Positions 21,100 through 41,672 of a stretch of DNA of 64,000 nt are shown piece after piece. The position numbers were made by a program, and so were the translations under genes. This stretch comes from Botryllus schlosseri (lineage: Eukaryota). The stretch is from positions 11,036,001 through 11,100,000 of the forward strand of contig CM119385.1 in NCBI GenBank assembly GCA_051294905.1, read 5' to 3'. Under the pieces are notes generated by a model. It worked only from the letters and a program-made list of their open reading frames with translations. It did no database searches and was not told the origin of the DNA. Each line of letters starts with the position of its first letter. Position 1 is the first letter of the stretch.

Positions 21100-23714
21100 C
21101 CTGTCAGACAAGATTTACATAAATTAATGTCATGTAAGCTACACGATCATCATCTGACATAAAATCTGCAGTTACCTTGGATGTAGCCTATGTATAATGT
21201 ATATAAACTACGCGCTGCTCTACACCGCTTCAAGACAACGCAGCTTGATGCATGAATTAATACATCATATAGCACTCGCCACCGTGACAGGAAATTGCCG
21301 TGTTGCGGACACGTGACTGCAAGCAGTCAGTTTTTACGTAGAGGTTACGCGTGTTACGTTATCCGAGTTGTCAACTGCCTAATTTGCCACTATACGTCGA
21401 TCGTTCGATGTACGATATCAAAAGACAGAACCGCCCGACCGATGAAACAAACCTCGGCCCGACGGACGAACACCGGGTCAGCGTCTGTATCATAAGCAAA
21501 CGGTGTATGGACGAGTGAACGTTCAATCAATTCTCCAAAGTTTTAGAATGAAAACTGTTAGTTCATCATATGAGCGTGACAGCCCCGCGGACAATCCTTT
21601 CCCATGCACGATTTACAGTCTAGGGTTACCATATTTATGATTCGGGAAAGAAGACCAAATCAGGAAAGTTAATCAAGACTGAAAACAGCCGATTTTGCTA
21701 TTTTTGCTCGAAAATTTGTGGGGTTGACTAAAAAAAGTCATCACGTTCGGTCTACTCCACTCTTTACCCACTTTTTAAATGTAGTGGTGGTGACTAAAAA
21801 ATGGTCGTCACTTTCAATGACTCCCGCCGAATGACCCGCTCGAACGTCCGTAGTAGCTATTTAGCGTCATTTAATCCGATTTTCAGCCGAATCAGTCCAT
21901 TATCCTAGCTGTAAAAGCTCTAAAGGAGGACGAAGTTTCAAAAAGGAGGACAATTAGGCGTCCTCAGAGGACATTTCCAAAAGCCTGAAAAATGAGGACA
22001 AATCCTCCTAAAGGAGGACGTATGGTAACCCTAAGCTATCTATCTGATGCTCCTATCATGATAGGCCTATATATTTGATCACCGGCTACTCGCGACTGCG
22101 TGTTCGAGGTGTCATTACAGTCGATCTTATACTAAACATTCCTCGCATCACATAGAGCACCTCGAGGTGGTCAAATACGCAGTTCATACTTTCATTGCCC
22201 TGACCAGATTTTAATTTGTAGGCTACACTACACTAGCTTTCGATTAGGACAAGTTTCATTACATCTGAGCGCTCGGATCACCAGCAATGGAACTACTAGG
22301 TGGTTTTAGCTGGCTGCTGCTGGTTTTAGCAGGCTCAGCAGTAGATGTCCCTGCGTATTCAAGTGTGACGATTGGGCTGAGCAATGAGCATTAAGCAATG
22401 AGCATCTATCACAGGGGTTGGTAAACTATACGGCCCGCGGGCCGCATGCGGCCTGCAACACCGTTTTGTGCAGCTCGTGAATGCCTCAAGAAGCGTTGTA
22501 AAAATATCGATAAAATCTGTACTAAAAGTCAAATTACTGTAGCTAATTGAATAAATTTTTCTTAATAATTTCAACCTGATATAAGTTCTACCATATAGGC
22601 GGCCCCGGTTCGTTTCCCGTCGGAGGTTTATCGGGCTCCTCTTCCCCCTCCGTTGCCGTTCTCAAGGCGACAAAAAAGTCCAGAAATTGACCGGACGAAA
22701 GAAAGCACTCACAAGGAATGGAAAGAGCTAGAAAGGGCCGATAGGCTTTAAAAATATCAACATCGAAAAAGACCTGTGACGGCGGGCACTCTAGGCCGAG
22801 GTGGGTGCAGAGGTGGTCAGTAACGAAGTAGGCCTACTTCTACTTTTTCGAATTACTCAAGTAGTTTTCCTCTACTTCTGGTACTTACTCAAGTAGGTCT
22901 TCTTTTCGCTACTTCTACTTCTACTTCGTAATATATTTTAAACTACTTACTTACTTTACGCTATTTTCAGTTTGTCAAATAGAAGTAGTTTAATCCCCCA
23001 ATAAGAAAGATAGCCTAAGGACTTTCGGGGCTGTTTCACGTAGTACCAATATTCAATTTTCATAAAAGTCATGTAATACCTAGAATTTTCGTTTCGCTTC
23101 GAGCACAGTAAATATGGAGTGACAAATATGTTTTAACGAAAGTATCGCTGAAAATAATTTAGATACCGCGGGTGGCGTGGTTCCGTTCACACCGCATTGT
23201 CGGCTATATCAAATATTTCATCACAGTAAGTATGACCCCCCATAACGTTTGAAACTACCGTTTCACAATCTAGCACTTGCCTATTATACCTAGCAGCCCA
23301 TGACGTGTCCTAATCTGGAAAAGTGGACTTTGACTTTTTTACCGTTAGACCTGTTTTAGCAGACCACCGTTAAAACTTTTTGGACAAAAGACATGAAATA
23401 TATTTTCCGCTTTTTAGAAATAGTATTCGTATTTTTATTTCAATTACGAGTATTATAGGTTGAGTTCTGATTATAGTTTCAGTTCATTTGTCTGAAGAAC
23501 ATACATGTTGAAGTATAAAAGCAAGAATAGTAATGCCTTATATTTTCGGAAAATAAAGCTATACACCCTATAGCATTTTTACGATCTGCCATATATTAAA
23601 TTACCGTACACTAATCGCGCAAAGTGTTCAAACTGTATCCGACACAACTTCTCCGTATTGCTCTTCGAATGAACTAGGGGCCTTAAGTAGTATTATACAC
23701 GGTAACGAGGCGCG

Positions 23715-23995
23715 CCCCAATCAGCGTCGAGTATTTGATCACGTGACATCTGTTAGCCAATCAGAATGCAGAACGAAGTGGGTGTGGTTCCAATACGAGA
23801 GAGGTTTTGGTTGTGTGAGAGATGGCATAGTTCCAGTCCAGTAACGCTGAGATATTTATTACGTCATTGCGTAAGTTGATTACCTATAATTGCGTATTGC
23901 AGCATGTGTATAATGATTACGTCATTATACGTCATTGCGTAAGTTGATTACCTATGATTGCGTATTGCACCATATTCATGATTACGTCACAAGCG
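23715..23995 (+). promoter_or_regulatory. TIR promoter: CCAAT boxes, CACGTG E-box, clustered TTACGTCA (ATF/CRE-type) sites in a ~65-bp duplicated unit
   Basis: CCAATCAG twice, ATCACGTGAC near 23739; TTACGTCA at 23859, 23917 and 23982, ATACGTCA at 23927; directly upstream of the Bcl-2 ORF. Confidence 0.6.
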
Positions 23996-24025
23996 TAGTT
24001 GATGCTCACTGTTATCTTCAAAACC

Positions 24026-24520
24026 ATGGAATTATTGCGAGTATCACCTGCGCTCACTGAAGAAAAGGATGAAATTATATCCACGGCATATTCCTTAGCT
24101 AGAAATTTTATCATGTATGAAATCGACGGCTCAAGCGTTAAAGCAAATACACAGGTGGAGAAAACCTTACGACGAGTTGTTACTGAAATATTTGAGCGAT
24201 ATCGAACTATCCTAAACGCAGTCTCCAAGCGCCTTCGTTATAGTGAAGTCAATGAGAAATATAAAGAACATTCACCCATTGAGCGAATGTTCCTGATGAT
24301 AGCCGATGAAATATTCAAAGATAGTCAAGAAAATTGGGGTCGGATTGTGTCTCTTTATGTGCTTGGCGGCATTCTTGCTCGCAATAACGAGGCTGCGCAT
24401 AACGGCAGGGATATAGATGCTATCATACAGACACTCGGGAATTACATTGCTACTAAAAAACGAAAGTGGATAGAACAAAATGGTGGATGGAGGCATTTTG
24501 TCACGTGGTATCACTTATAA
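24026..24520 (+). CDS. Bcl-2 family protein (viral Bcl-2-like), left TIR copy, 164 aa from the AAACCATGG start
   Basis: BH1 EIFKDSQENWGRIVSLYVLGG, BH2 WIEQNGGWRHF, BH3-like TLRRVVTEIFE; no C-terminal TM anchor; intronless. Confidence 0.9.
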   Translation: MELLRVSPALTEEKDEIISTAYSLARNFIMYEIDGSSVKANTQVEKTLRRVVTEIFERYRTILNAVSKRLRYSEVNEKYKEHSPIERMFLMIADEIFKDSQENWGRIVSLYVLGGILARNNEAAHNGRDIDAIIQTLGNYIATKKRKWIEQNGGWRHFVTWYHL

Positions 24521-24619
24521 AAGCTCGATCGCAGTTACTATTTGTTATATTTACATCATGGGTTCCGTGCGAATAAACGGTTGTAAGTTTATTGGATCCA
24601 AGGCCGTATCATGGATAGT

Positions 24620-24814
24620 GTGAAGTAGTTGTCTACCCAGAGCTTTTGCTCCTTTGGAAATCAAGGGTACCACACTACGTCCCAAACTGCGAAATAGATT
24701 ACCTAGACCGTGACCTCTTTGCACTCGACCTCGAAAGTAGTTTATGTCCCCTCCGCTTTGATTTCGATAATAGTGTTGAAAAGCTTCACGATCACAACAG
24801 TAATGTGCTCTCAT
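24620..24814 (-). pseudogene. 3'-truncated copy of the cement/pX-like gene running into the TIR
   Basis: Identical to the 36686 ORF up to LGRQLLHT, then reads antisense TIR sequence. Confidence 0.8.
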
Positions 24815-25541
24815 CGTGACGTAAAGCAAGTGTGATATGAACTACAGAACCATTCAGATTTATAGATGCACCTTTATCGTCTCTAATACTAATTCGAATT
24901 CGATTGGCATATTCCGCAATCATAGGGAAAAAGTAGATTTTCTCAAAAATGTGATGTTGGTATTCATTGTTAGCTGCTGTGATAGGGATATTTCGCAATA
25001 GCGGTGCATTCGTATCACCAACTGTTTGTGGTCGAATGAGATCGGTATAGACCAATAAATTACTTATCGGTGCGATGCTATCTCGCAGGAACATTTGCGA
25101 AGTTAAATATTTTCCTTGCGGTAAATTTTGTTCTTTAAGATTTCCATATACGAAAACCGGATTTCTGATTCTCTTTGGATTTCTTCGGAAATTCGGAAAG
25201 GCACCTGCTTCGCTAGGGGGAATGACTAGCATAGCCGTGGAGCTTGACAGCTGATTTATCCATACCTTTGTCTGAGTACGATTGATTCTATCGATCAAGC
25301 TTTTGAAATCATAATAATCCCCATTTGGATAGAAAAAATAATTATTGCTTTGCGCTGCCAACAGAGCAGATGATTTTTCCTCTTGAAATTCCCATAACAA
25401 TCCATTGAAATGGGGTAAAGTAGCTTGAAACTGATTACGAACTGAAAATTCTGCAAGCCCCAACTCCCATTTTCCAGTGATGGGACGCGCCAAGTCAAGT
25501 ACAAAATCCGATTTCGAACTGCTAATGTGAATGTATTTCAT
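24792..25541 (-). CDS. Minor capsid (penton-like) protein 2, intact copy, 249 aa
   Basis: N-terminal KWELGLAEF and C-terminal LLVYTDLIRPQTVGDTNAPLLRNI...IRISIRDDKG...VHITLALR match the Maverick minor-capsid pattern; full-length ORF. Confidence 0.85.
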   Translation of the reverse strand: MKYIHISSSKSDFVLDLARPITGKWELGLAEFSVRNQFQATLPHFNGLLWEFQEEKSSALLAAQSNNYFFYPNGDYYDFKSLIDRINRTQTKVWINQLSSSTAMLVIPPSEAGAFPNFRRNPKRIRNPVFVYGNLKEQNLPQGKYLTSQMFLRDSIAPISNLLVYTDLIRPQTVGDTNAPLLRNIPITAANNEYQHHIFEKIYFFPMIAEYANRIRISIRDDKGASINLNGSVVHITLALRHDESTLLL

Positions 25542-26159
25542 AACGCAATAGCACGCTTTCGAAATTGCAGTACAGCACTAGACGGTGCACTCCGAAAAGG
25601 AATTTTTTCACCCTTATCATTCAACAAAGATATTTTTATACGTTCCAATCTATTTATATTTATAGGGAAAAAGAAAGGCTTTATGTAGTATTTGGAAAAC
25701 GCCTTCTTATCTCCCTCGACTTTCACCACTCGCAATAGGCGCTGTAATGTACCATTGGATTCTTGCGGTTCAATAATATCGCAATGAACGTATACAAAGT
25801 CAATCGACGGTAAGGGTGTTATATCGAAATTGAAATGTATTTTTTTCTTTGAGAAAGAATATGCGGATAGCGCTGCTGTATTTGGTAACACGAAAGTCGC
25901 GAGAGTGTAGGCATCTGGAATTTCTATATTCTTCAACGTTGCTGTATAATCGTTCTCTGCAGTCACGATATTGCATTGCGTATCCACTCCTGGATAAAAG
26001 ATATCTGTGATGTCTTCGTGTGGAATTGACACAGTTAGGGTATTGCTCTCAGGAAAACATTTTACTGCTACATCGGGGTTGATACTTTCTATGGTTTTTA
26101 ACATGGCGTAGAGCGAGTCATATTGTCCAATTTTCAGGCGGAATCGTCTAAAGCTTTGT
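25538..26159 (-). pseudogene. 5'-truncated copy of penton-1
   Basis: Matches the 35158-35979 protein from QSFRRFRLK onward; lacks the first ~66 codons. The upstream 'N-terminus' in the ORF track is an alternative frame of ORF182. Confidence 0.8.
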
Positions 26160-26696
26160 CTGAGAATTGTTTGGCATCCATTTTTGATTGCCGTATTGCG
26201 TATTGCTATTTGGAAAGGTACCATTAGCATTGCCAGCATTCCGGAATCTTGCATTGGTATTCGACATGCCACCATTCCCAGCAAAGTTGCCATAACCATT
26301 TGGAAATCCCGCTTTTGCGCGATCCATAGGTTGTATTTGACCATTCGGCGCAATGTAACGCGATGTTTCTTGTAAAATCCACCCCAGCGGTGAATTTTCT
26401 ACGTCATCAACGACGTTCGACGGAGAATATAATATATATTCATCAGCGAGATTGATTTGCTGAAAGTATTCGATACCTTCTCGAGTGTAACACGCAACGA
26501 GCTTCCCATCATGAGTTAAACTTGCTTTGAATCTTTGTATTGCACCATTCGTTGGAAACACACGTACTTGTCGAGCATCGATCAGCTGATCGTCTGCAGT
26601 TTCGATTCGAAGCTTCGATATGTTATTGAAAATGTAAATGTCCTTCCGAAGAGCTCCTTCTGGGAGTTGCGACTCGGCTCTAATTGCTATAGACAT
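26148..26696 (-). CDS. Orphan Maverick protein (182 aa) with Gly/Asn-rich tail; C-terminus clipped by the duplication junction
   Basis: ATG-initiated ORF; its last codons ACA AAG CTT TAG lie inside the duplicated penton sequence. Confidence 0.65.
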   Translation of the reverse strand: MSIAIRAESQLPEGALRKDIYIFNNISKLRIETADDQLIDARQVRVFPTNGAIQRFKASLTHDGKLVACYTREGIEYFQQINLADEYILYSPSNVVDDVENSPLGWILQETSRYIAPNGQIQPMDRAKAGFPNGYGNFAGNGGMSNTNARFRNAGNANGTFPNSNTQYGNQKWMPNNSQTKL

Positions 26697-26806: not shown

Positions 26807-27050
26807 AAATTTAAAATGATTGAATATCTCACACGTTGCGTCGCTGTTTTGCAACTGTCACAGATTCAAATTCAACGCAGCAGCTGTTATTTTTCAAATT
26901 TAAAATGATTATCTCGAACGTTGCGCAACTGTTTCACAACTGCCGCAGATTCAAATTCAACGCCGCAGCTGTTGTTTTTAAATTTAATATATCTCGGACG
27001 TTGCGCAACTGTCACTGGCACAGTTTCAAATTCATAGCCGCAGCTAGTTT
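26807..27050 (+). repeat. Three tandem ~85-bp units in the Maverick intergenic region
   Basis: Units start at 26807, 26896 and 26980 (AAATTTAA...ATCTC..ACGTTGCG...CAGATTCAAATTCAACGC.GCAGCTGTT). Confidence 0.85.
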
Positions 27051-27190
27051 GATAGGTGCATGCGTGTTATTGTGATCGCATACTAGGTGAGGGACCCACG
27101 TGAACACTTATTCATTGGAACTTAAACGCCTTAACCACTCAGCCAACTCAGTATATATTCACGATGTTTAGCCTCAGCTATGCGACCACT

Positions 27191-27453: not shown

Positions 27454-27594
27454 ATGAATACTGAACAAGCCGTAAATGACGAGATGGAACAAGTCGCAGT
27501 AGATAACGAAAGTAGTACGACTCAAGTTGACGTGATTGACATCACCGGCGATGATTGCAGTAAAGCTAAATCAACCAGCGAAGATTTTGAATAA
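27454..27594 (+). CDS. 46-aa acidic micropeptide with a SUMO-interacting motif
   Basis: MNTEQAVNDEMEQVAVDNESSTTQVDVIDITGDDCSKAKSTSEDFE*; below the ORF-track cut-off. Confidence 0.55.
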   Translation: MNTEQAVNDEMEQVAVDNESSTTQVDVIDITGDDCSKAKSTSEDFE

Positions 27595-27860: not shown

Positions 27861-27917
27861 TTGCAGTTGAAGCAAGTGCAAGGCAATATATAACGTGTAA
27901 TATTTAGTACATGACAT

Positions 27918-28571
27918 ATGTTTTTGAGTAGTGATATAGCAAGCTATGTATTGAGTACTTTTGAAAAGTTAAATGCCGACAAATCTATTTGCATGTTTCC
28001 GAATTGTGCTATTGTTTTCATTAATAATGCTGCTCTCCTAGAGACTATTATGACACGTACAGCTGTGAACTGTGATTATGGCTTGATTAAGCCTGCCTCT
28101 TTCTGGATGTTTTGTAAAAATGGCTCTGAGATCATTAATTCAATCTTTTATTGTTTGCAGCTCAGTATGGATAACTTTATTGACATAAGTGACTTGTTAG
28201 ATATGAACGCACCTCATCAAAGTGTAACGATGCAGGCTCCGAGAAAAGACATGAACAAGATATATCAGAGTCAAAATGAAAGCCGAAAGCGCTCGCGTCA
28301 AGACACTATGTCTTTGATCGAAGGTCTAGTTGACGACGATTTGAAGATGGAAGCTATGTGGAATCGACTTGTTTCGATGGAAGTATTTGACCAAGACTAC
28401 TCGAAAAATTTTCTAAACATAATTAAAAACACCATGAAAGACATTGAAAAACTATCTAGTGACTCGAATGCTTGCATTGTTGAGATTCAGCGTCTTGAAA
28501 AAATTAAGTTTGTGTTTCTATACGGTGTGATTAAATGTAAACTGCGCTTGAAATATGGATTCAATTTCTAA
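27918..28571 (+). CDS. Orphan Maverick protein, 217 aa
   Basis: ATG ORF overlapping the pPolB start; basic patch SRKRSR and helical C-terminal part; no family recognised. Confidence 0.7.
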   Translation: MFLSSDIASYVLSTFEKLNADKSICMFPNCAIVFINNAALLETIMTRTAVNCDYGLIKPASFWMFCKNGSEIINSIFYCLQLSMDNFIDISDLLDMNAPHQSVTMQAPRKDMNKIYQSQNESRKRSRQDTMSLIEGLVDDDLKMEAMWNRLVSMEVFDQDYSKNFLNIIKNTMKDIEKLSSDSNACIVEIQRLEKIKFVFLYGVIKCKLRLKYGFNF

Positions 28572-31500
28572 TATATGTACTGACTATTGTCTTGGTATTT
28601 TTCAGATACTAGTATCTATGGCGCGACGCAGGCGATATGGAGATCGTGGATTTCTGGTCGACGAAACGCTGGGTTTCGAACAAGACGGCATAGAGGTGAT
28701 TGAAAGACACTACGATTCCATCATCGATTCGACATGGACTTCAAGAAACAACTTACGAGAAATCATCAACATTCGAATGGTCGGAAGAGGTCCGCTCGAA
28801 ATTCACGCGCGTATTGCAGACATTTACCCCAGAAGATATCGTCAGTTCAAGATGAATTTCGCGTATGGGTACTTATTATTCAACCGTGACACATCCAGAT
28901 ATAGTTATTATCATCCTCAGAGTTCTCAAGCGGTTTTTACTGTCCCTAAAACTATCATATCACGCGAAGATTTCGATTCCGTCACGAATGAGATCGATTT
29001 GACGGCAGGTTTTGAATATGCCAATCGAGTGCGACCAGATACGAAATTCTACTGTGCTGATGTGTTGCATATTTCCATTTACATTTATGAGATGGATAGA
29101 GCTTTACTTGGTGGAAGTACTATCATTTCCCCGGAGATGCAAGCATTAAGCAAATGTAACTATATCATGACTTTCCTGCGTAACCAAAAAGGCAAAGCAT
29201 ATGAGGATTCTTTGTGTATTTTCCGCTGCGTTTCATATAGCATGAAAAAAAAGCGTAATGAAACACATGTTCGGCAATTGGCCGCGCAATTCACAGCCCG
29301 TTACGATATCTCGACTGAGAACGGAGTAGCTTTTGAAGACTTATCAAAAGTTGAGGATTGTTTTCAAGTTCAAATACTGCTTTATGAAAAACGTAATCAA
29401 GGCACAGTCATGCTGCGTAATTCTCATGCTAATGGAATGACTATACCTATTCACATGCAAGATCATCACTGTTGCCTGATTAGGGACCTGACATTGTACA
29501 CGTCTACCTATATGTGTGACAAGTGTAAATTTTTCTTTACTAGAAAAGATAATTTGATAGAGCATATGAAAAGCATTGATTGTGAGCGTCCTCAAAAACA
29601 GCGACACGGTTTCGGTATTTATCGCCCTAAGATGACTGTGTTTGAGCGAATGGCCGAACAAGGAATTTTGGTTAGCTCTGAAAAACGATATTACCCCTTC
29701 CGAATCGCTTATGATTTCGAGAGTTTACTAGAAAAAGAAAATCTTCGAGCTGACACACCGAAAGTTGAAATTGTCAACAAGCATGTTGCGGTATCGGTAT
29801 CTCTCTCAGATAATGTTACGAATGAAACGCATACACTCATTTCCAACGGTGATCCCAACGTTTTAATCAACGATATGGTGGCAAAACTATATGAAATTCA
29901 AAACGTCGCATCTTCGCATATGCGGCAGTTATTTGAAGAAGAATTGAAAGATTTTCGCATGTTAATAGAGCATCGCAATGCAATTGAACCAGGCAAAACT
30001 CGCTATTTAGATCGCTTGTATCGTCACTTCGAAATTTGGTTGGATCAAATACCTGTGATTGGATTCAACTCGGCTCGTTACGACTTGAATCTTTGTAAAA
30101 AATATTTGATTCCTATACTGCAAGAAGAAAGTGGATTTTTTGTTTTGAAACGAAACAGCGCATATCTGACCATCAGTACCAACCGATTGAAATTCCTTGA
30201 TATTTCACTGTTTCTGTCACCGGGTTATAGTTTGGACGCGTACTTGAAAATTTATGGAAATGGGGTGGACAAAAAATTCTATTTTCCATACGAGTACATG
30301 ACTTGTATTGATAAATTGAATGACACGCAATTACCTCCACACGAGATGTTCTATAGCAGTCATCGAGGCACTAATATCACCGCGGCGCAATACCAAGAAT
30401 GCGTAGATATGTGGAATCGTCTGCAAATGAAAACCATGCGAGACTTTCTAACTTTTTATAACGAAAGTGACGTGATTGGCTTTCTGGTTGCGTTAGGTAA
30501 TAACGCTGCCTTTTATCAAAAGTTGGGTATTGACATGTTCAAATCTGCTATCAGTTTACCAAGCATAGCCAATCGACTCATGTTTGCAGAATGTTATGAC
30601 ATCGCGCTGTTCAGTAAAGCGAATGCTGATCTCCATCAAACTGTAGTGAGCAATCTATTCGGTGGTCTGTCACAAATATCGACACGATTTGCAATGAAAG
30701 ACGAAACGAAAATTCGTGAAATACAGTACGGCGACGCAGCGAAATACGTGAAAAAGATAATCGGATATGACGCAAATTCGCTCTACCTCGCATCCATCGA
30801 TCAATGCATGCCGTGTGGATTTCCAATCAGGTGGTTGTATGACGAAACCAAACAAAAATTTCACAGAAAGCCAATTTACCCTGCGATGGCAGAACTCGAA
30901 TGGCTTACTTATGAAAGTTATCAGCGCGATATTTCAATTCAACACGCCTGGAACGGCAAGCAAGCTAAACTTGGCTCGCGTCAAATTTCGGTTGATGGCT
31001 TTTCGCTTGAATATCAATTGATATTCCAATATCATGGATGTTTTTTTCATTGTTGTGATCGGTGCTATAAGGACGACGCAAACATTGAGCGACGTATTAA
31101 AACAGAAGAAATCACTGCCTATCTCGAAGAGTTGGGATACACGATAATATCAATACGCGAATGTGAATGGAATCGCATGAAACTCAACCCTGACATTGCG
31201 CAGTTTGTTTCGTCACTACAAAGAAATGTAACAAAAGAATATTATCTCACTGCGAATCAACTATTAGATCGCGTATTTCATCAACAGTTCTTTGGGGCAT
31301 TGGAAGTCGATGCGTACTGCCCCGATGAATTAAAAGCAAAATATGCAGAATTTCCGCCATTTTGTAAACATATCTCGGTGGATTTATGCGATGTCGGCGA
31401 ACATATGCGCGAATATGCCCGTCAAAACAATGTGAAATTTCCAAAGAAGTTTTTGGGCTCTAGTTATTTCACTGAGAAACAACTAATTACAAGTGATTTG

Positions 31501-32484: not shown

Positions 32485-32488
32485 TAAA

Positions 32489-33144: not shown

Positions 33145-33549
33145 ATGGCGAGGTCACGCGGTGTTTTGAAAAAAACTTTAAATAATCATCTTATCAAGTT
33201 GAAGCTGCTAAAGAGTGCTAAAAAGAAGGAACGTAACGAGTTATTAACTCACAAAGCTTTTACTAGCTGTGTGTGTGAGTGTCTTCGTAACCTTGTCTCG
33301 GGCAATATAGCTATTTCAAGTACGAGTAAGGCACGATTGAAGAAGCATAAAACTAACATTCGCAAAGTGTTGTGCTGTAAATCTCAAAAACAGAAGCAAA
33401 AAACATTACAACAGGGTGGCTTTTTATCAGGTGAATATACATGCGATTCGATTCGATTCATGATCTAACTTTAATGATTGATAGCGATCTTAAGTGCTGC
33501 AATTCCGATTATTGGAAGTCTGTTGGGCGGATTGACTAGACATGCGTGA
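33145..33549 (+). CDS. Basic core protein (pVII/PW-like), spliced: exons 33145-33430 and 33485-33549, 116 aa
   Basis: CECLRNLVSGN and QQGG|F adenain-type site; removing the GT-AG intron restores the amphipathic end QQGGFLSAILSAAIPIIGSLLGGLTRHA. Confidence 0.8.
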
Positions 33550-34003
33550 ATTGTACTTCCCGTCTTTACAATCAAAAGACGCCTACGAAAAGAAATTCAA
33601 TGAACATATCGCAAGCATCAGGGACTCTGATTTGACACGCACCGAAAAATTAGCACTATTTCAACACGGCATTAGACTATTGAGAAATCTACGTGCAAAT
33701 AAGAAATTGATCAAGTCGTCGTCCCGCGCACCCGCAGCGCCCGCTACCGATGAAACAATTGCCGCGTCGCATCCGCCCGGAGCGGCGCCCGCTATTAATA
33801 ACACATTTGACGCGACACCTCCGCCCGCAACACCCGAGATTTGGAACAATTACGAAGCGGTAACTCCACCCCATACACCTAAAACTTCAAAGAAAAAAGT
33901 TAAAAAGAAGAAAGCCAATAAACCTCCAGTTAATTGGCAAAGCATTGACGGTCCGCGCAAACGAAAGCCGAATCAACGCTACACAGGAAAGTTATGGACA
34001 TGA
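33542..34003 (+). CDS. Maverick virion/core-type protein, Pro/Ala-rich middle and Lys-rich tail, 153 aa
   Basis: ATG overlaps the spliced upstream stop; helical IRDSDLTRTEKLALFQ segment is like the conserved small ORF found before Maverick integrases. Confidence 0.7.
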   Translation: MRELYFPSLQSKDAYEKKFNEHIASIRDSDLTRTEKLALFQHGIRLLRNLRANKKLIKSSSRAPAAPATDETIAASHPPGAAPAINNTFDATPPPATPEIWNNYEAVTPPHTPKTSKKKVKKKKANKPPVNWQSIDGPRKRKPNQRYTGKLWT

Positions 34004-35001
34004 CGCAAGACTATTTCGATCCCCGCAAACCAAACTCCTATAGAGGAGCTTATTTACAGAAAGACAAAGAATGGTTGAAATCAGAACAAAGTTATACCCT
34101 GCATTTTCCTATACGAAAAAAATTTACTCGCGAGAAGGTGGTAGTCTCTGGAATTGATAGTCAGTTTCAGAGCGATTTGATTGATGTGCAGTCTATTTCT
34201 AAATACAATCGTGGATTTAGATATCTGGCTTTGGTTATTGATACGTTTTCAAAGTTTGTGTGGTTGATTCCAATTAAAGATAAAACTGGTCGCAGTATGA
34301 TTTCTGCTTTCCGACAAGTGTTCAATGAGAGGCTGCCTTTAGTGTTGCAGACTGATAGAGGTACAGAATATACCAATCGAGCTTTTCAAAACTTTCTCAA
34401 GAAAAATAAAGTTCGTTACTTTTACACAAAAAGCGAATTGAAGTCGTCTCTCGCCGAGCGCTGTATTAGGACTTTCAAGGCAATCTTGTACCGCTATTTC
34501 ACAAAGAATAACACCAGTAAATACATCGACGTGCTACAGGATTTCGTATATTCCTATAATCACACCAAACATACGTCGTTAGGTATGGCTCCTAGTCAAG
34601 TCAATTCACACAATCAAGAAGCTATTTGGCAAAAAATGTACGGGTTTCGACAAGCTACACTTCCCACACTGACGAAAGGGACAGCCGTACGCATTTCGAA
34701 AATTCGCGGGCTTTTTGAAAAGAGCAGTAGACCCAATTGGACAACTGAGATATTTTATATCATCGACGCAATGGCTGGTGACCCTCCGATGTATCACCTG
34801 CGTGACTATAATCATGATGTCATCGATGGGAGGTTTTACAGAGAAGAACTACAGGTAGTGACCGAACCTACAGAGTGGCGTGTTGAAAAGATTATAAAGA
34901 GACGTCAACGCGGCAAACACCGTCAGTATTTAGTGAAATGGGTAGGATATGGATCAGAATTCAATTCCTGGGTCGATCAAAAAGATATCGTCAAACCGTA
35001 A
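33994..35001 (+). CDS. Retroviral-type (rve) DDE integrase with C-terminal chromodomain, 335 aa
   Basis: QSDLID, QTDRGTEY and AERCIRT catalytic motifs; chromodomain WRVEKII...YLVKWVGY...NSWV. Confidence 0.95.
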   Translation: MDMTQDYFDPRKPNSYRGAYLQKDKEWLKSEQSYTLHFPIRKKFTREKVVVSGIDSQFQSDLIDVQSISKYNRGFRYLALVIDTFSKFVWLIPIKDKTGRSMISAFRQVFNERLPLVLQTDRGTEYTNRAFQNFLKKNKVRYFYTKSELKSSLAERCIRTFKAILYRYFTKNNTSKYIDVLQDFVYSYNHTKHTSLGMAPSQVNSHNQEAIWQKMYGFRQATLPTLTKGTAVRISKIRGLFEKSSRPNWTTEIFYIIDAMAGDPPMYHLRDYNHDVIDGRFYREELQVVTEPTEWRVEKIIKRRQRGKHRQYLVKWVGYGSEFNSWVDQKDIVKP

Positions 35002-35161
35002 CTTTTATCAATTCATCGCTCAAGTCGTGGTTATATTGATCATAGTGATTTTTTCACTCTACAATTTAACAATCGTTCAAGAAAACAAGGAGCTTTGGGT
35101 ATCGTTATTATCGTCGTGTGTGGGTTATATGTTACCAGCTCCAAAAATACCTAAACTATGA
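34949..35161 (+). CDS. Small two-TM membrane protein
   Basis: FIAQVVVILIIVIFSLYNL and LWVSLLSSCVGYMLPAP; TATGA overlap with the penton-1 start; typical Maverick small hydrophobic ORF. Confidence 0.7.
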   Translation: MDQNSIPGSIKKISSNRNFYQFIAQVVVILIIVIFSLYNLTIVQENKELWVSLLSSCVGYMLPAPKIPKL

Positions 35162-35979
35162 GTTATGTGACGTTATTTTCCAATGCTTCTATGGACATGT
35201 TTCCTGGCAATACAACCGCAGAATATGTCAACGAAATGCAGACGGCTAGAAATGTAGAGAGAAATGAAGTCGCTCTGACGGAGATCAGTTTTCCAAGAGA
35301 TTTTGAAAAACGTATCGAGTCACAAGCTTCTTTCGGATTCCAAATTACGGGTATCGAACAAAGCTTTAGACGATTCCGGTTGAAAACAGGACAATATGAC
35401 TCGCTCTACGCCATGTTAAAAACCTTGGAAAGTATCAACCCTGATGTAGCAGTAAAATGTTTTCCTGAGAGCAATACCCTAACTGTGTCAATTCCACACG
35501 AAGACATCGCAGATATTTTATATCCAGGAGTGGATACGCAATGCAATATCGTGACTGCAGAGAACGATTATACAGCAACGTTGAAGAATATAGAAATTCC
35601 AGATGCCTATACTCTCGCGACTTTTGTGCTACCAAATACAGCAGCGCTATCCGCATATTCTTTCTCAAAGAAAAAAATACATTTCAATTTCGATATAACA
35701 CCCTTACCGTCGATTGACTTTGTATACGTTCATTGCGATATTATTGAACCGCAAGAATCCAATGGTACATTACAGCGCCTATTGCGAGTGGTGAAAGTCG
35801 AGGGAGATAAGAAGGCGTTTTCCAAATACTACATAAAGCCTTTCTTTTTCCCTGTAAATATAAATAGATTGGAGCGTATAAAAATATCTTTGTTGAATGA
35901 TAAGGCTGAAAAAATTCCTTTTCGGAGTGCACCGTCTAGTGCTGTATTGCAATTTCGAAAGCGTGCTATTGCGTTATGA
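35158..35979 (+). CDS. Minor capsid protein (penton) 1, 273 aa
   Basis: N-terminal YVTLFSNASMDMFPGNT and C-terminal VYVHCDIIEPQ...LLRVV...IKISLLNDK...VLQFRK match the Maverick penton pattern. Confidence 0.9.
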   Translation: MSYVTLFSNASMDMFPGNTTAEYVNEMQTARNVERNEVALTEISFPRDFEKRIESQASFGFQITGIEQSFRRFRLKTGQYDSLYAMLKTLESINPDVAVKCFPESNTLTVSIPHEDIADILYPGVDTQCNIVTAENDYTATLKNIEIPDAYTLATFVLPNTAALSAYSFSKKKIHFNFDITPLPSIDFVYVHCDIIEPQESNGTLQRLLRVVKVEGDKKAFSKYYIKPFFFPVNINRLERIKISLLNDKAEKIPFRSAPSSAVLQFRKRAIAL

Positions 35980-36708
35980 AATACATTCACATTAGCAGTT
36001 CGGAATCGGATTTTGTACTTGACTTGGCACGTCCCATCACCGGAAAATGGGAGTTGGGGCTTGCAGAATTTTCAGTTCGTAATCAGTTTCAAGCAACTTT
36101 ACCTCATTTCAATGGATTGTTATGGGAATTTCAAGAGGAAAAATCATCTGCTCTGTTGGCAGCGCAAAGCAATAATTATTTTTTCTATCCAAATGGGGAT
36201 TATTATGATTTCAAAAGCTTGATCGATAGAATCAATCGTAGTCAGACAAAGGTATGGATAAATCAGTTGTCAAGCTCCACGGCTATGCTAGTCATACCCC
36301 CTAGCGAAGCAGGTGCCTTTCCGAATTTCCGAAGAAATCCAAAGAGAATCAGAAACCCGGTTTTCGTATATGGGAATCTTAAACAACAACATTTACCGCA
36401 AGGAAAATATTTAACTTCGCAAATGTTCCTGCGAGATGGCATCGAGCCTATTAGTAATTTATTGGTCTATACCGATCTCATTCGACCGCAAACAGTCGGC
36501 GATACGAATGCACCGCTATTGCGAAATATCCCTATCACAGCAACATCACATTTTTGAGAAAATCTACTTTTTCCCTATGATTGCGGAATATGCCAATCGA
36601 ATTCGAATTAGTATTAGAGACGATAAAGGAGAATCTATAAATCTGAATGGTTCTGTAGTTCATATCACACTTGCTTTACGTCACGATGAGAGCACATTAC
36701 TGTTGTGA
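35976..36708 (+). pseudogene. Penton-like protein 2, frameshifted by a 17-bp deletion at 36542/36543
   Basis: ORF stops at 36557; the C-terminus continues in another frame to 36708. The inverted copy keeps GCTAACAATGAATACCA (24958-24974). Confidence 0.88.
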
Positions 36709-37054
36709 TCGTGAAGCTTTTCAACACTATTATCGAAATCAAAGCGGAGGGGACATAAACTACTTTCGAGGTCGAGTGCAAAGAGGTCACGGTCTAGGTA
36801 ATCTATTTCGCAGTTTGGGACGTAGTGTGGTACCCTTGATTTCCAAAGGAGCAAAAGCTCTGGGTAGACAACTACTTCACACCGGGGCTGAAGTCGCTTC
36901 TGACGTATTGGGAGGACAAAACATTGGAGAAAGCTTTAAAATCAGAGGAAAGCAAGCTGCTAGTCAAGCACTTGATAATTTCCTAGGGAAGAGAAAAGCA
37001 CCTAAAAAGAAAAATACCAAACGGAAAAAACGTCGCCGGGATATTTTTGATTAA
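36686..37054 (+). CDS. Cement/pX-pVI-like virion protein (start MRAHYCC)
   Basis: QSGG and QRGHGLG Gly motifs, amphipathic GLGNLFRSLGRSVVPLISKG helix, basic tail; lies just before hexon. Confidence 0.8.
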   Translation: MRAHYCCDREAFQHYYRNQSGGDINYFRGRVQRGHGLGNLFRSLGRSVVPLISKGAKALGRQLLHTGAEVASDVLGGQNIGESFKIRGKQAASQALDNFLGKRKAPKKKNTKRKKRRRDIFD

Positions 37055-37104: not shown

Positions 37105-38382
37105 ATGACGGAGCTGATTCATAGCAAATCTGCTGAAGGTATTCATCCGTCTTTAGACCTTTTCCAGATACCACCTACTCAGACGAGTGTAGAGAAAAAA
37201 CGTATCATCAAGATACCCCCTGTTTCGGACAATGAATCCGTCATAACTTTCAGATACGAGGGGTGTGGAGATTTCATAGATCTAAGCGAATCTTATTTTT
37301 TATTTCGTTTGAAACTGTTGAAAGGCGATGCGGATTTAGTCGCAAATGATGATATTGGCGTTGTCAATAACATTTTAGATTCAATGATTTCACAACTTCA
37401 CATTAAAGTTGGAAATCACACGATCAAGCAGGATATAAAACTACAGGCGTATTCAGCCTACTTGAACTATCTGTTCGCCCCACAAGACGTACAAAAGTCA
37501 ACGCTTTTGACACAGGGTTGGGTCAAAGATACCCCTGAGCAATTAGATGATAAGGCTATAGGCGATGCTGCAGCTAACAAAGGTCACAACGCGAGAAGTT
37601 TGCCTTTTGCAATCAGTAAAGTTGTTGAAATTAGAGGCCGAATACATCACGGATTATGCTTACAAGACCGTTACATTCTGGACGAGGTACCCTTGGAGTT
37701 CGAACTCACTTTGAACCCGAAAAGTTTCTTTCTGTTTGGAGTGAATACTAGCAATTTCAAAATTATTAAAAAAGAGCTGCAATTGTGTGGTGTGAAAGTA
37801 AGCGAAGATGTGAAATCCGCTATGATGGTCGATGCTCCAGCTAGATATCCGTTTATGGACATGAAGCTTCTGACAAGAACTTTCGCAGCTAACACCACTC
37901 AAATCGATATTGGTAATCTGTATTCGGGTACTCTACCGACTCGTTTAATCATCGGTATGGTAGCGACTAAGGCATTCCAGGGTGCGTTCGATAAAAATCC
38001 ATACAATTTTATTCATAACAAAATGAAGCGTGTCGAATTGAAAGTCAATGGTTTCCTGATACCGGAAGGTGGATACGAACTTGATTTTGAAAACAATCAC
38101 TATTCTGAAGCCTATCTCAATATGGTTCAAGGCATAGGAGCTCTCGAAAAACAGATCGGAGTTCTCACCCCGAAGGAATTCGCTAATGGATATACTCTTC
38201 TAGTATATAACTTGCGAGCTGATGATTTAGACGACTGTTTCGAACTGCAGAAAAGCGGTACCCTTAGTCTGCGCATCACTTTTCCTGCTGATGGTGTCGC
38301 GAGCGAAACAACTCTGCTTTGTTTCATGGAATTTCAAAAAATACTGGAAATAAGCCAAGCTCGCACCGTTACTGTAATATGA
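37105..38382 (+). CDS. Major capsid protein (hexon, double jelly-roll), 425 aa
   Basis: SLDLFQIPPTQTSVE N-terminus, GTLPTRLIIGMV...AFQG..KNPYNF, and C-terminal GTLSLRITF...MEFQKILEI match the Maverick MCP pattern. Confidence 0.95.
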   Translation: MTELIHSKSAEGIHPSLDLFQIPPTQTSVEKKRIIKIPPVSDNESVITFRYEGCGDFIDLSESYFLFRLKLLKGDADLVANDDIGVVNNILDSMISQLHIKVGNHTIKQDIKLQAYSAYLNYLFAPQDVQKSTLLTQGWVKDTPEQLDDKAIGDAAANKGHNARSLPFAISKVVEIRGRIHHGLCLQDRYILDEVPLEFELTLNPKSFFLFGVNTSNFKIIKKELQLCGVKVSEDVKSAMMVDAPARYPFMDMKLLTRTFAANTTQIDIGNLYSGTLPTRLIIGMVATKAFQGAFDKNPYNFIHNKMKRVELKVNGFLIPEGGYELDFENNHYSEAYLNMVQGIGALEKQIGVLTPKEFANGYTLLVYNLRADDLDDCFELQKSGTLSLRITFPADGVASETTLLCFMEFQKILEISQARTVTVI

Positions 38383-38831
38383 ACGGACTAGAAATAGATG
38401 AAATATTGTATAGTTACGATTCCACCAAACGACATTATCTAGGAAATTTTCCTATTGATCGACTTCCTCGGCGACCGAAAGCTCCCTACTCATTAATCAT
38501 TAATTATGACGAGGCCGACGAACCAGGAAGTCACTGGGTATGCATCTACGCTGATGAATATGGAACTCATTATCATGACAGCTTCGGCATAACTCCGTTC
38601 AGAAACGAAATACCCTGTTTCTTAGAACCTGAAAAGTATACAAGTTCGATCAAACCATTACAGCACAAACGTTCAGAGGCTTGCGGAGCGCACGCAATTT
38701 CATTCCTAAGCTGCCGCAGTGATGGTATGAGCACGCTGTCTTATTTAGACCACTTCGGAAAAGATAAGAAACACAACGATAGTATAGTCTGGGACTTTGT
38801 TCAAAGATTGAAACGAAATGCGAGCAAATAG
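38379..38831 (+). CDS. Adenain-like cysteine maturation protease (start MNGLEI), 150 aa
   Basis: Catalytic H (GSHW), D (YHDSFG), Q (LQH) and C (SEACG); ATATGA overlap with the hexon stop. Confidence 0.93.
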   Translation: MNGLEIDEILYSYDSTKRHYLGNFPIDRLPRRPKAPYSLIINYDEADEPGSHWVCIYADEYGTHYHDSFGITPFRNEIPCFLEPEKYTSSIKPLQHKRSEACGAHAISFLSCRSDGMSTLSYLDHFGKDKKHNDSIVWDFVQRLKRNASK

Positions 38832-39135
38832 CTTCACTGTCATACAGTACTTTGGAGATGAGAAGATTCGACTGAAAATCAGAGAAAAAATCATTGTAAT
38901 GAATCCTGAACGCATTCACAGACTTTCATCTGATAGCTTTCATATACGTATTTATCCGCATGACCGAGATATTACATTATTCATTGGAACTGATTGGTTG
39001 CCTGTACGCTTTCCTAATCATTGTATGTACATAGACGTGTTATCGAAACATAGAATTGCTCAACAAATCAGTGAAGAATTTGTTGTTTTTCGTAGACTAA
39101 AAATCTGGGAATCTCTGACTAGATCGCGTATATAA
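38818..39135 (+). CDS. Orphan accessory protein, 105 aa
   Basis: ATG overlaps the protease end; beta-rich; no family recognised. Confidence 0.6.
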   Translation: MRANSFTVIQYFGDEKIRLKIREKIIVMNPERIHRLSSDSFHIRIYPHDRDITLFIGTDWLPVRFPNHCMYIDVLSKHRIAQQISEEFVVFRRLKIWESLTRSRI

Positions 39136-39252
39136 ATGGAAGATGCCGATGATATCTTAGCTGTCGTGTTCATCGTACTGCTTACTATTTGTTGTATACT
39201 GGAATGGGTATCATGTTGCTGTCAAGAACGTGAGCAAGCTAGTGAAGCATGA
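39136..39252 (+). CDS. 38-aa single-TM, Cys-rich micropeptide
   Basis: MEDADDILAVVFIVLLTICCILEWVSCCCQEREQASEA*; abuts the upstream stop (TAA-ATG) and overlaps the next start (ATGA). Confidence 0.6.
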   Translation: MEDADDILAVVFIVLLTICCILEWVSCCCQEREQASEA

Positions 39253-39566
39253 CCATGGCAAGAATTTCTGTTGCTACTCAGTTTGAGTCGAGTCGTAATT
39301 ATGAGGAAATGATTGTATTGCCCAACGTGAGATCAATTACCATTCCCTACACGTGTATACTTTTCCATTATGATAATAGAATTGTAGTGAAACCAATTGA
39401 AGATTGTGTTACATACCCATCGCGTAATATCATTGTCTGTAAAGACGAATATTATCGTGTGCTTTATAAATCGTGCTTGGTCATTGATTTCAAGGGCAAG
39501 GCGATTGTTGTTGGTAATATAATCCTATTCCAAGCGTTTTGTGATGGTCGTTTCATAACTCAATAA
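39249..39566 (+). CDS. Orphan accessory protein, 105 aa
   Basis: ATGA-coupled; stop lies within AATAAA, the likely end of the rightward transcription unit. Confidence 0.6.
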   Translation: MTMARISVATQFESSRNYEEMIVLPNVRSITIPYTCILFHYDNRIVVKPIEDCVTYPSRNIIVCKDEYYRVLYKSCLVIDFKGKAIVVGNIILFQAFCDGRFITQ

Positions 39567-39617
39567 ATCACTGACTCGTGTTCGGTTGTGTTTATCCATT
39601 AGGTAGTAGCAAAATGC

Positions 39618-39689
39618 AGATTCGTCCGGGATTTGAACCCGGGACCTCTCGCTCCCAAAGCGAGCATCATACCCCTAGACCAACGAATC
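39618..39689 (-). tRNA. tRNA-Pro(UGG), Maverick-encoded
   Basis: 72 nt: GATTCGT/ACGAATC acceptor stem, CTCGC-TTTGGGA-GCGAG anticodon arm, CCGGG-TTCAAAT-CCCGG T arm; A and B boxes intact; TTTT terminator 3 nt downstream. Confidence 0.93.
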
Positions 39690-39865: not shown

Positions 39866-40336
39866 TCACGCTGACAAATCGCAGTCGACTCTGGCATAGC
39901 GTTCGGTATATTGCTGAGCGCGTTTAAAGTAGAGTTGTCTATCTTCCAGATAGAGATGTGCACTTTCCGCATTCATAGGATCGTTTGGATTTGGTGCGCC
40001 AAGTAACGAAGATATTGATAGCAGCACAGTTGATGTAGTTAGCGCTGGTGACCATTGCTTCTGCAAAATATCCACGCATATAGTGCCTTTCACACTAATG
40101 TTCGGGTGAAATATATGAGTTTCAAATCTCATCTTCGGAGGTCGAAACGGATACTCTGTGGGATATTCTATTAATATTTTAAACACTCCTTTTTCGTATG
40201 GTGTTCCCTGGGGTCCTTCAATTGTTGCCCACCAACTAAATAGATTCGATTCGTCAATCGGTCCCGCTTTGATAGTAGAATCAGAACAATTCCGAAACTT
40301 TTCTCGCTCGAAACACAGTCTTTTCAAAGCACACAT
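39866..40336 (-). CDS. Ubiquitin-conjugating enzyme E2 (UBE2D/Ubc4-like), 156 aa from MCALKRL
   Basis: EGPQGTPYEKGVF, EYPFRPPK, HPNI...ICVDIL (catalytic Cys), WSPAL; intronless; ATTAAA/AATAAA downstream. Confidence 0.95.
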   Translation of the reverse strand: MCALKRLCFEREKFRNCSDSTIKAGPIDESNLFSWWATIEGPQGTPYEKGVFKILIEYPTEYPFRPPKMRFETHIFHPNISVKGTICVDILQKQWSPALTTSTVLLSISSLLGAPNPNDPMNAESAHLYLEDRQLYFKRAQQYTERYARVDCDLSA

Positions 40337-40405
40337 TCTGAGTGACAATCAAATTGAAATGATTGCGCCACCTTTGCGTCATTAGCACTTCAACGGAAAA
40401 AAGAG

Positions 40406-40477
40406 TGGAGAATACGGGAATTGAACCCGTGACCTTCTGCTTGCAAGACAGCTGCTCTACCGCTGAGCTAAATCCCC
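40406..40477 (-). tRNA. tRNA-Ala(UGC), Maverick-encoded
   Basis: 72 nt GGGGATTTAGCTCAGCGGTAGAGC...CTTGCAA...GGGTTCAATTCCCGTATTCTCCA; G3:U70 pair; A and B boxes; T6 terminator at 40397-40402. Confidence 0.88.
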
Positions 40478-40500
40478 AAGCGATAGTGACGGCTTAAATG

Positions 40501-40800
40501 TTAGTTTTGAGCAGTAGCATTAGCAAATTTATGAGATAGTTCTACTGTAGCTGTTGACTTGAAAACAACTCGATGTTCTTCTTTCGTTACTTCAGTATCG
40601 TATATCTTCATAGTTTTTCTTTCGTCTTGATCACATGGTACCAGCTCTGTATAATTACATCCTTCACATTCTACTATAGTGAAAGGATACGATATTTCCA
40701 TTACATCCACACCAACCATCTTCATACATTTCGAATATACTATCCATGATACGGCCTTGGATCCAATAAACTTACAACCGTTTATTCGCACGGAACCCAT
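40501..40800 (-). CDS. Orphan accessory protein, 99 aa (start MGSVRING), straddling the right TIR boundary
   Basis: TATAAAA ~40 bp upstream; the first 21 codons lie in the TIR, and the left copy stops at the junction (24559-24623). Confidence 0.65.
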   Translation of the reverse strand: MGSVRINGCKFIGSKAVSWIVYSKCMKMVGVDVMEISYPFTIVECEGCNYTELVPCDQDERKTMKIYDTEVTKEEHRVVFKSTATVELSHKFANATAQN

Positions 40801-41672
40801 GATGTAAATATAACAAATAGTAACTGCGATCGAGCTTTTATAAGTGATACCACGTGACAAAATGCCTCCATCCACCATTTTGTTCTATCCACTTTCGTTT
40901 TTTAGTAGCAATGTAATTCCCGAGTGTCTGTATGATAGCATCTATATCCCTGCCGTTATGCGCAGCCTCGTTATTGCGAGCAAGAATGCCGCCAAGCACA
41001 TAAAGAGACACAATCCGACCCCAATTTTCTTGACTATCTTTGAATATTTCATCGGCTATCATCAGGAACATTCGCTCAATGGGTGAATGTTCTTTATATT
41101 TCTCATTGACTTCACTATAACGAAGGCGCTTGGAGACTGCGTTTAGGATAGTTCGATATCGCTCAAATATTTCAGTAACAACTCGTCGTAAGGTTTTCTC
41201 CACCTGTGTATTTGCTTTAACGCTTGAGCCGTCGATTTCATACATGATAAAATTTCTAGCTAAGGAATATGCCGTGGATATAATTTCATCCTTTTCTTCA
41301 GTGAGCGCAGGTGATACTCGCAATAATTCCATGGTTTTGAAGATAACAGTGAGCATCAACTACGCTTGTGACGTAATCATGAATATGGTGCAATACGCAA
41401 TCATAGGTAATCAACTTACGCAATGACGTATAATGACGTAATCATTATACACATGCTGCAATACGCAATTATAGGTAATCAACTTACGCAATGACGTAAT
41501 AAATATCTCAGCGTTACTGGACTGGAACTATGCCATCTCTCACACAACCAAAACCTCTCTCGTATTGGAACCACACCCACTTCGTTCTGCATTCTGATTG
41601 GCTAACAGATGTCACGTGATCAAATACTCGACGCTGATTGGGGCGCGCCTCGTTACCGTGTATAATACTACT
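40739..41672 (-). repeat. Right terminal inverted repeat (934 bp)
   Basis: Reverse complement of 23686-24619; ends ...AATACTACT followed by the TSD GCCTTA. Confidence 0.95.
40838..41332 (-). CDS. Bcl-2 family protein, right TIR copy
   Basis: Translation identical to the left copy (NWGR, GGW). Confidence 0.9.
   Translation of the reverse strand: MELLRVSPALTEEKDEIISTAYSLARNFIMYEIDGSSVKANTQVEKTLRRVVTEIFERYRTILNAVSKRLRYSEVNEKYKEHSPIERMFLMIADEIFKDSQENWGRIVSLYVLGGILARNNEAAHNGRDIDAIIQTLGNYIATKKRKWIEQNGGWRHFVTWYHL

Follow-up and report, generated by a model that had tools for sequence, protein, structure and literature searches.

A young Maverick of Botryllus schlosseri with its left end replaced by inverted copies of family sequence

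In the established model, Mavericks replicate as linear, protein-primed DNA, and terminal duplication and copy-back or snap-back defective genomes are familiar from linear DNA viruses, examples being adenovirus inverted terminal repeat (ITR) repair, poxvirus terminal transposition and parvovirus snap-back. The subject of this study is a Maverick at positions 23686-41672 of a 64,000-nt stretch of the Botryllus schlosseri genome (assembly GCA_051294905.1, contig CM119385.1, positions 11,036,001-11,100,000 of the forward strand; this entire stretch is termed the window), in which inverted copies of family sequence stand in place of the normal left end. Like copy-back defective genomes, the element has one terminus remade from the other in inverted form, and its length is near unit size. 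It differs from them in being integrated in an animal genome with a target-site duplication (TSD) and in coexisting with fully palindromic relatives.

Among described systems, the animal Mavericks/Polintons (Barreat and Katzourakis, 2021; PMC8097293) share with the element (AGT)2//(ACT)2 ends, a 6-bp TSD, genes for protein-primed DNA polymerase B (pPolB), ATPase, integrase, capsid and protease, and purifying selection on the capsid. In contrast to these Mavericks, whose core genes form two inward-facing modules, the element carries its core genes on one strand, and it is further set apart by two paralogous, probably minor-capsid-like genes, a one-sided terminal duplication of 2.5 kb and a cargo of tRNA and ubiquitin-conjugating enzyme (E2) genes. 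Beta adintoviruses (Starrett et al., 2021; PMC8502044) resemble it in an rve integrase, adenain, ATPase and hexon and perhaps in a divergent PolB without PF03175 match, and homologues of Bcl2 and of inhibitors of apoptosis (IAP) have already been reported for adintoviruses; the main text names no E2, and tRNA genes come up there only where a figure depicts MELD viruses, which have other replicases; the supplementary maps may show more. With the Polintons of the pPolB2 class (Jeong et al., bioRxiv 10.1101/2023.08.22.554363) the element shares gene exchange between Polintons of one host and probably a divergent polymerase class, but that work describes genes replaced between classes, not mosaics at base level between near-identical copies or copy-back of a terminus. 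The element class and its anti-apoptotic cargo are already known. In the accessible parts of the literature searched (including PMC8502044, PMC8097293, PMC6431247, PMC11414722, PMC11131425 and 10.1101/2023.08.22.554363) we found neither conserved E2/tRNA cargo nor one-sided terminal copy-back, palindromic Maverick satellites or exchange with such satellites; Kapitonov and Jurka (2006) may describe non-autonomous Polintons.

The element is 17,987 bp long and ends in AGTAGT//ACTACT. The perfect 6-bp TSD and the identical 934-bp terminal inverted repeats (TIRs) of the original prediction were both confirmed: GCCTTA is present on either side, and a full alignment of the TIRs yielded 934 identical positions out of 934, with the first mismatch at position 935. 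The insertion target is a host interspersed repeat, an unoccupied paralogue of which (13510-14007) matches both flanks with an overlap of exactly 6 bp and is the empty-site equivalent of the insertion. The window contains no N, and the TSD and flanks are continuous with this empty paralogue. Of the Maverick/Polinton traits, the element has (AGT)2//(ACT)2 TIRs, the 6-bp TSD, pPolB, rve integrase, packaging ATPase, double-jelly-roll capsid and adenain-type protease, and its predicted assignment to the Mavericks/Polintons is secure. Copies of the host repeat, 78-90% alike, occupy window positions 10800-14000, 22800-23685, 41673-42100 and 44500-46300, one of them being the insertion target. The boundaries and the open reading frames (ORFs) of the rearranged left end are listed below; all ratios of nonsynonymous to synonymous substitution rates (dN/dS) in this study are pairwise Nei-Gojobori estimates.

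23680..23685, no strand: left TSD GCCTTA, a single site at 13613-13618 in the paralogous empty repeat
23686..24619, plus strand: left terminal repeat, an inverted copy of the right 934 bp that displaces the normal left end (0 mismatches)
24551..24814, minus strand: truncated duplicate of the basic core-protein-like gene, 87 aa, extending into the TIR
24618..26159, minus strand: inverted duplicate of the structural block 35358-36882, 96.4% identical to the in-place copy and 99.6% to the C2 14.48M sibling
24792..25541, minus strand: 249-aa gene, open duplicate, 100% identical to the sibling protein
25538..26344, minus strand: 268-aa chimeric ORF arising from junction 26159, with about 61 aa from an overlapping left-end frame and 208 aa of the 273-aa gene
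26148..26696, minus strand: 182-aa conserved left-end ORF without family match (homologues at 43-100% in four families; dN/dS 0.26)
40739..41672, minus strand: right terminal 934 bp
41673..41678, no strand: right TSD GCCTTA, the same 6 bp on both sides of the element

The first 2,474 bp of the element stand in place of about 1,493 bp of normal family left end. The copied right terminus is joined, with a 2-nt overlap at junction 24619, to a second inverted duplication (24618-26159 versus 35358-36882) that had been overlooked in the original prediction, and beyond 26159 ordinary left-end sequence resumes. Both junctions are unique in the assembly, 24619 being spanned by one of 25 matches and 26159 by one of 26. 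The duplicated block is 3.6% divergent from the in-place copy, whereas it shows no difference from the sibling at C2 14.48M over 24618-25526 and six altogether, and the right 5,040 bp of the element are identical to that same copy, which resides on another contig. The segment 26160-28590 is 98.6% identical to the C14 22.58M/C2 36.47M subfamily, starting at position 1,494 of the C14 22.58M copy, while the region from 28.6 to 36.6 kb is about 2-4% away from every sibling. A deletion near 36541 sits some 90 bp from the start of exact identity with C2 14.48M. The element combines sequence from at least two lineages as a mosaic, and in the assembly, the sole source for this, it has a terminus rebuilt as an inverted copy via probable template-switch junctions, as is typical of copy-back defective genomes. 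The helper dependence of such genomes is not seen, each core gene keeping an open frame. Because the left end is an inverted copy of a right terminus that carries Bcl-2, the element has two Bcl-2 ORFs; the doubling that had been predicted is real at the level of ORFs but concerns one gene inside a duplicated TIR, a by-product of the rearrangement. In the same way, the description as near-intact fits the open core genes but not the architecture, which is rearranged: one gene copy is frameshifted, one ORF is a chimera and the helicase-like gene is cut short.

Searching the host's own genome for the capsid (99 of 273 candidates scored) revealed at least 11 copies at 99% identity or more, including the element, one at 97%, at least 12 near-full copies at 84-87%, at least 39 full-length copies at 69-71% and a further group at 33-34%; this single genome harbours at least four capsid lineages. 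We refer to the ten other copies with capsids at least 99% identical as close siblings and fetched all of them. Each has its own 6-bp TSD, a length of 17,175-17,882 bp, a single Bcl-2 gene and exact TIRs of 33-217 bp, typically short and near-identical with lineage-specific terminal variants at both ends; a second Bcl-2 or an exact TIR above 217 bp occurs in none of the ten, and the 934-bp TIR is thereby ruled out as a family trait. Two pairs of siblings from different loci reach 99.95% and 99.97% identity, and the family has therefore been active recently. The claim that the element itself is young likewise held: the TIRs are free of mismatches, and a copy on a different contig matches it over 5,040 bp without a single difference. 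Assuming 1e-8 to 1e-9 substitutions per site per year, a rate taken as given and a calculation that gene conversion would weaken, zero differences in 934 bp correspond to a 95% upper bound of 0.16-1.6 million years and zero in 5,040 bp versus C2 14.48M to one of 0.03-0.3 million years. A BIR/IAP ORF, absent from the element, was read in two siblings and the 97% relative; by BLAST, a ~400-bp extra segment matching the BIR insert is found in four further siblings and missing from three. A third tRNA gene, tRNA-Leu(TAA), is present in seven of nine siblings scanned. Damage to this element alone is ruled out as the cause of BIR and tRNA-Leu loss, as two other copies share the losses; truncation of a 411-aa gene, BIR loss and tRNA-Leu decay are common to the C14 subfamily and therefore older than the element. 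In public sequencing runs, the stretch of the element or part of it appears in 20 of 24 listed rows from 10 studies, with at least half of its words in 13 and no RNA among the rows listed. The best share was 0.65, compared with 0.55-0.58 for a single sibling and 0.75 for nine siblings, so that the runs look like family members rather than the element itself, and they were not used as evidence.

Searching with the terminus turned up elements that are palindromic over their whole length and have Maverick ends and TSDs. Four of them measured 14,884-15,967 bp with arms 99.6-99.8% identical; the two that were read contain no ORF of at least 100 aa. These palindromic relatives are without the core genes of the element. 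Two share its first 130 bp exactly, and a 14,974-bp palindrome carries in both arms 667 bp from the family's integrase/273-aa region at 98.5% identity. For the central loop motif of the palindromes, one variant pattern gave 156 exact matches versus 0 for the control; the loop, of about 33 nt, contains degenerate telomere-like CCTAA/CCCTAA motifs and is common to palindrome families with different termini. A Bcl-2 search returned 416 candidates, of which 150 were scored, and these were mostly inverted pairs. Thirteen such palindrome loci were fetched, 11 with wider flanks: five have clean TSDs at 14,941-16,029 bp, with the Bcl-2 pair spanning 3.6-8.8 kb, three have both ends (16.4-17.6 kb) but failed the TSD test, and three are unsettled. 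Among the open Bcl-2 genes of these capsid-less palindromes, dN/dS is 0.20-0.97 and below 0.56 in 14 of 15 pairs. Their Bcl-2 sequences and termini point to the 70%-capsid family, and the family of the element is ruled out as donor. Four of five fetched copies of the 70%-capsid family are devoid of pPolB and the helicase-like gene and have Bcl-2 at that position; integrase, capsid genes and BIR are kept. The assembly has gaps inside several palindromes and duplicated arms at some. At C15 22.39M, a distant Maverick (pPolB 35%, ~16.5 kb) is nested in one arm of a giant palindrome.

We consider it probable that the element is an integrated Maverick/Polinton whose left end was replaced by inverted copies, likely through template switching by pPolB among co-replicating family members shortly before integration. 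Synthesis would have started at the right terminus of the C2 14.48M lineage and copied 934 bp, whereupon the polymerase would have jumped about 3.9 kb into the structural block and copied 1.5 kb, before a second jump to about position 1,494 of a C14 22.58M-like genome, on which it would have run to the C2-lineage right end; the integrase would then have inserted the product with a 6-bp duplication. Satellites would most likely replicate together with the family members, and template switching of this kind would yield mosaics, end-homogenisation of variable length and one-sided copy-back, with full palindromes as the extreme. During a capsid stage, the role of Bcl-2, joined by BIR in other siblings, would be to hold off cell death, that of E2 to supply ubiquitin ligation and that of the tRNAs to aid translation. 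Several points weigh against this picture. Both junctions are read from the assembly alone, an assembly with gaps inside several palindromes; junction 26159 has no exact microhomology, and a parent for the middle 8 kb is absent from the assembly. Regarding the capsid stage and the accessory roles, Bcl-2 shows the weakest constraint among the named accessory proteins, the anticodons of the three tRNAs do not fit the commonest codons, low dN/dS mirrors the history of the lineage and not the competence of this copy, and none of eight candidates for viral contig relatives was confirmed.

The same data may be read differently. In a genome offering at least 11 near-identical templates, a single other chromosomal copy matches 5,040 bp and most of the left duplicate without difference. 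This would also be expected had the left end been rearranged only once the element was in place, through ectopic gene conversion or break repair involving the element locus and C2 14.48M. However, several tracts would then have to end exactly at the terminus, leave the TSDs untouched and include an inverted distant block, and the lineage-specific variants at both ends of the siblings point to end-copying in replication, so that we regard post-insertion repair as rather improbable. Long exact identity with C2 14.48M, together with the gaps and duplicated arms at palindromes elsewhere and with junctions known from the assembly only, could also signal an odd left arm created by chimeric assembly of two similar copies; yet the window is free of N, TSD and flanks are continuous with the empty paralogue, and six differences to C2 14.48M, 3.6% divergence from the in-place copy and unique junctions are not expected from simple collapse, and we take such an artefact to be improbable. 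That the element is instead a canonical infectious virus genome, in which long TIRs, a pair of Bcl-2 genes and a peptide bearing a SUMO-interacting motif (SIM) belong to the design, would agree with open core genes and purifying selection, but it appears highly improbable given that none of the ten siblings has a long TIR or a second Bcl-2, that the SIM peptide is a stub, and that one gene copy is frameshifted and one ORF chimeric.

A separate matter, independent of how the left end arose, is whether the family moves only within cells, its capsid genes serving intracellular replication or nuclear entry and its anti-death cargo protecting germ-line cells. Capsid-less palindromes that keep open Bcl-2 genes, a retroelement in the same genome with IAP and E2 genes and the lack of a confirmed free relative among the eight candidates are all compatible with such a life style, and because of the first two the cargo alone is no proof of infection. 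The inference of an infectious cycle from host-manipulation genes, as made in the original prediction, is thereby weakened, although its conclusion gains indirect backing from another side. Capsid dN/dS is 0-0.053 in four of four sibling pairs, 0.12 versus the 97% relative and 0.055 versus the sister family, compared with 0.04-0.21 for the protease, 0.09-0.17 for pPolB, 0.17 for BIR, 0.23-0.55 for Bcl-2 and 0.095 for E2 versus the sister family, where dS is near saturation. Since capsid and protease are strongly constrained, the family would appear to pass through a capsid stage, and purifying selection on these two genes would seem the better argument for an infectious cycle than cargo. In vertebrate Mavericks, purifying selection on the capsid has been taken as a sign of reinfection (PMC8097293). 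In view of the very low capsid dN/dS alongside a packaging ATPase and a protease, this published reading of the same pattern and at least four capsid lineages in one genome, we judge purely intracellular movement to be unlikely; a virion stage of the family is indirectly supported by these sequence comparisons.

The core genes of the element are arranged as follows.

28555..32484, plus strand: protein-primed DNA polymerase B, probably divergent and beta/pPolB2-like, 1309 aa (Exo and Pol motifs; 60 relatives at E<=1e-100)
32378..33109, plus strand: A32-like packaging ATPase (PF04665, E 1e-9; Walker A and B)
33145..34003, plus strand: two short ORFs of 107 and 153 aa, conserved but lacking a family match above cut-off
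33994..35001, plus strand: rve integrase with C-terminal chromodomain (PF00665 and PF00385; DDE motifs)
34949..35161, plus strand: 70-aa hydrophobic ORF, kept in siblings and captured whole by palindromic satellites
35158..35979, plus strand: 273-aa gene, probably minor-capsid-like and paralogous to the 249-aa gene
35976..36708, plus strand: in-place 249-aa gene, frameshifted near 36541 by a short deletion (193- and 90-aa frames)
36686..37054, plus strand: 122-aa basic protein at the PW position (dN/dS 0.09; no Pfam match)
37105..38382, plus strand: double-jelly-roll major capsid protein (MCP), 425 aa (model pLDDT 79.7; Sputnik MCP E 4.6e-17, mavirus MCP 1e-14)
38379..38831, plus strand: adenain-type maturation protease, aligning with S273R of African swine fever virus (ASFV) over the His and Gln/Cys motifs (E 0.0026)
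38818..39566, plus strand: two 105-aa ORFs without family match, homologues in the sister family

As had been predicted, pPolB, ATPase, integrase, hexon and protease are all open with their catalytic motifs in place. The tight ATGA/TAATG coupling proposed for the gene order applies in part, ATGA overlaps being present at four of the five gene junctions checked and TAATG at none of these five. The PF03175 profile gave no match to pPolB, though some relatives at 34-39% do carry precomputed PF03175. Named relatives are from marine invertebrates at 33-38% identity, and the AFG variant of motif B recurs in five of the 60 relatives. An insert in this polymerase may represent a VSR-type domain, judging from sequence resemblance and a weak RAP match. 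For the capsid, Pfam alone was weak and a PDB sequence search with the capsid alignment returned chance matches or none, but among known structures the modelled fold is nearest to Sputnik, iridovirus, PBCV-1 and mavirus capsids. To judge by position and nameless look-alikes alone, the paralogues of 273 and 249 aa are likely minor-capsid-like: the 249-aa protein has Atlas look-alikes at 0.98, mostly Preplasmiviricota, the minor-capsid alignment found no true match by sequence in the PDB, and the single-sequence model of the 273-aa protein, with a pLDDT of only 35, is too poor to use for the fold. The 122-aa basic protein is presumably pVII-like. It and the 70-aa ORF had no Pfam match above cut-off, and GasderminX and cupiennin were not recognised here, the source paper having used HHpred.

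The accessory genes are found at both ends of the element.

24002..24520, plus strand: Bcl-2-family ORF, 172 aa, duplicate within the TIR (PF00452, E 1e-20; Mcl-1 match E 1.2e-10)
27094..27152, minus strand: decayed tRNA-Leu(TAA) remnant that neither ARAGORN nor Rfam calls, aligning to the tRNA-Leu of siblings at 86% identity with a gap of 5 nt
27454..27594, plus strand: 46-aa stub with the SIM-like motif VDVIDIT, the N-terminus of the siblings' 411-aa gene
27918..28571, plus strand: 217-aa ORF, N-terminal part like part of the 411-aa gene, C-terminal part like a family 134-aa ORF
39618..39689, minus strand: tRNA-Pro(TGG) (ARAGORN/Rfam, 61 bits)
39866..40336, minus strand: E2, UBE2D-like (PF00179, E 2e-48; best PDB match UBE2D1; HPN and active Cys)
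40405..40477, minus strand: tRNA-Ala(TGC) with G3:U70 and a T-run downstream, 86% identical to the sister family versus ~45% for the flanks
40501..40878, minus strand: 125-aa ORF overlapping the Bcl-2 3' end, weakly constrained (dN/dS 0.73)
40838..41356, minus strand: Bcl-2-family ORF at the normal family position

The Bcl-2 protein is Mcl-1-like, keeps the NWGR motif of BH1 as well as BH2 and stops right past BH2; none of 29 candidates passed in a search for homologues. Because it is UBE2D-like, the E2 is of the ubiquitin type and not of the SUMO type. The closest matches outside the family (68-71%) lie at C1 34.12-34.49M, where some 20 E2 genes without introns form a tandem cluster, possibly donor or recipient. 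The two called tRNA genes of the element score 67 and 61 bits. All 26 matches of a tRNA-Ala search are at Maverick positions, and a host tRNA-Ala as donor was rejected since no host gene reached E 0.001. Codon bias as a reason for the tRNAs is unsupported (GCA 52 versus GCT 61, CCA 32 versus CCT 40, TTA 57 versus TTG 76). E2 and tRNA-Ala are viral genes of long standing and not recent captures, since both are conserved between the two families, although synonymous sites there are largely saturated and the flanks of the tRNA gene are only ~45% alike. A SIM peptide as a stand-alone gene is ruled out, its sequence being the first 46 residues of the 411-aa gene; the motif recurs in the 97% relative and, in a looser form, in one of two sister-family copies. 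The 411-aa gene of the siblings is likely SF3-helicase-like, with a degenerate Walker A and an Atlas look-alike score of 0.89 that serves as a lead only; a sequence search of the PDB gave chance matches or none. An 85-bp tandem repeat (26824-27012) and, inside the interrupted helicase-like gene, a stretch like the family's subterminal repeats (27625-27914) are also present. What survives of the accessory toolkit originally proposed is thus, at the level of the family, E2, Bcl-2, BIR and two to three tRNAs, while the SUMO part has dissolved into a gene stub and a ubiquitin-type E2 and the second Bcl-2 is a by-product.

The sister family (capsid 86%) has E2 and tRNA-Ala but no Bcl-2; downstream of its protease (position 6828-7568 of the fetched locus) resides an ORF with a caspase domain (PF00656, E 4e-13; His and Cys motifs). 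Large retroelements at C5 27.02-27.06M and C1 7.87-7.91M encode a gag zinc knuckle, reverse transcriptase and RNase H fused to Tpt1, and are preceded by about 15 intronless ORFs, among them an IAP with three BIR domains and RING, a leucine-rich repeat protein, an E2 and an ISXO2-like transposase domain. To judge from numerous E2 matches at 55-58%, this retroelement family is probably multi-copy. At window positions 58600-62190, arrays of a AAGCTAATG-type unit in inverted orientation probably form a foldback-type element.

It has long been asked how animal Mavericks replicate and whether they form virions, and this locus and its siblings offer testable handles on both, namely recombination at base level, one-sided copy-back with unique junctions and constrained capsid genes. 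A further handle is provided by satellites that recently took up family DNA and copied the same piece to both arms. As many public DNA and RNA data sets exist for the host, expression and polymorphism are directly checkable. The element may show how the many palindromic satellites of this genome arise. More tentatively, and on balance with some doubt, it could be a frozen early step of copy-back in a DNA-virus system of helpers and defective satellites, in which both would co-replicate, swap termini and internal pieces and be held near capsid size, and by which an anti-apoptotic Bcl-2 would have spread to hundreds of copies. If true, this would be sequence-level evidence that animal Mavericks make virions.

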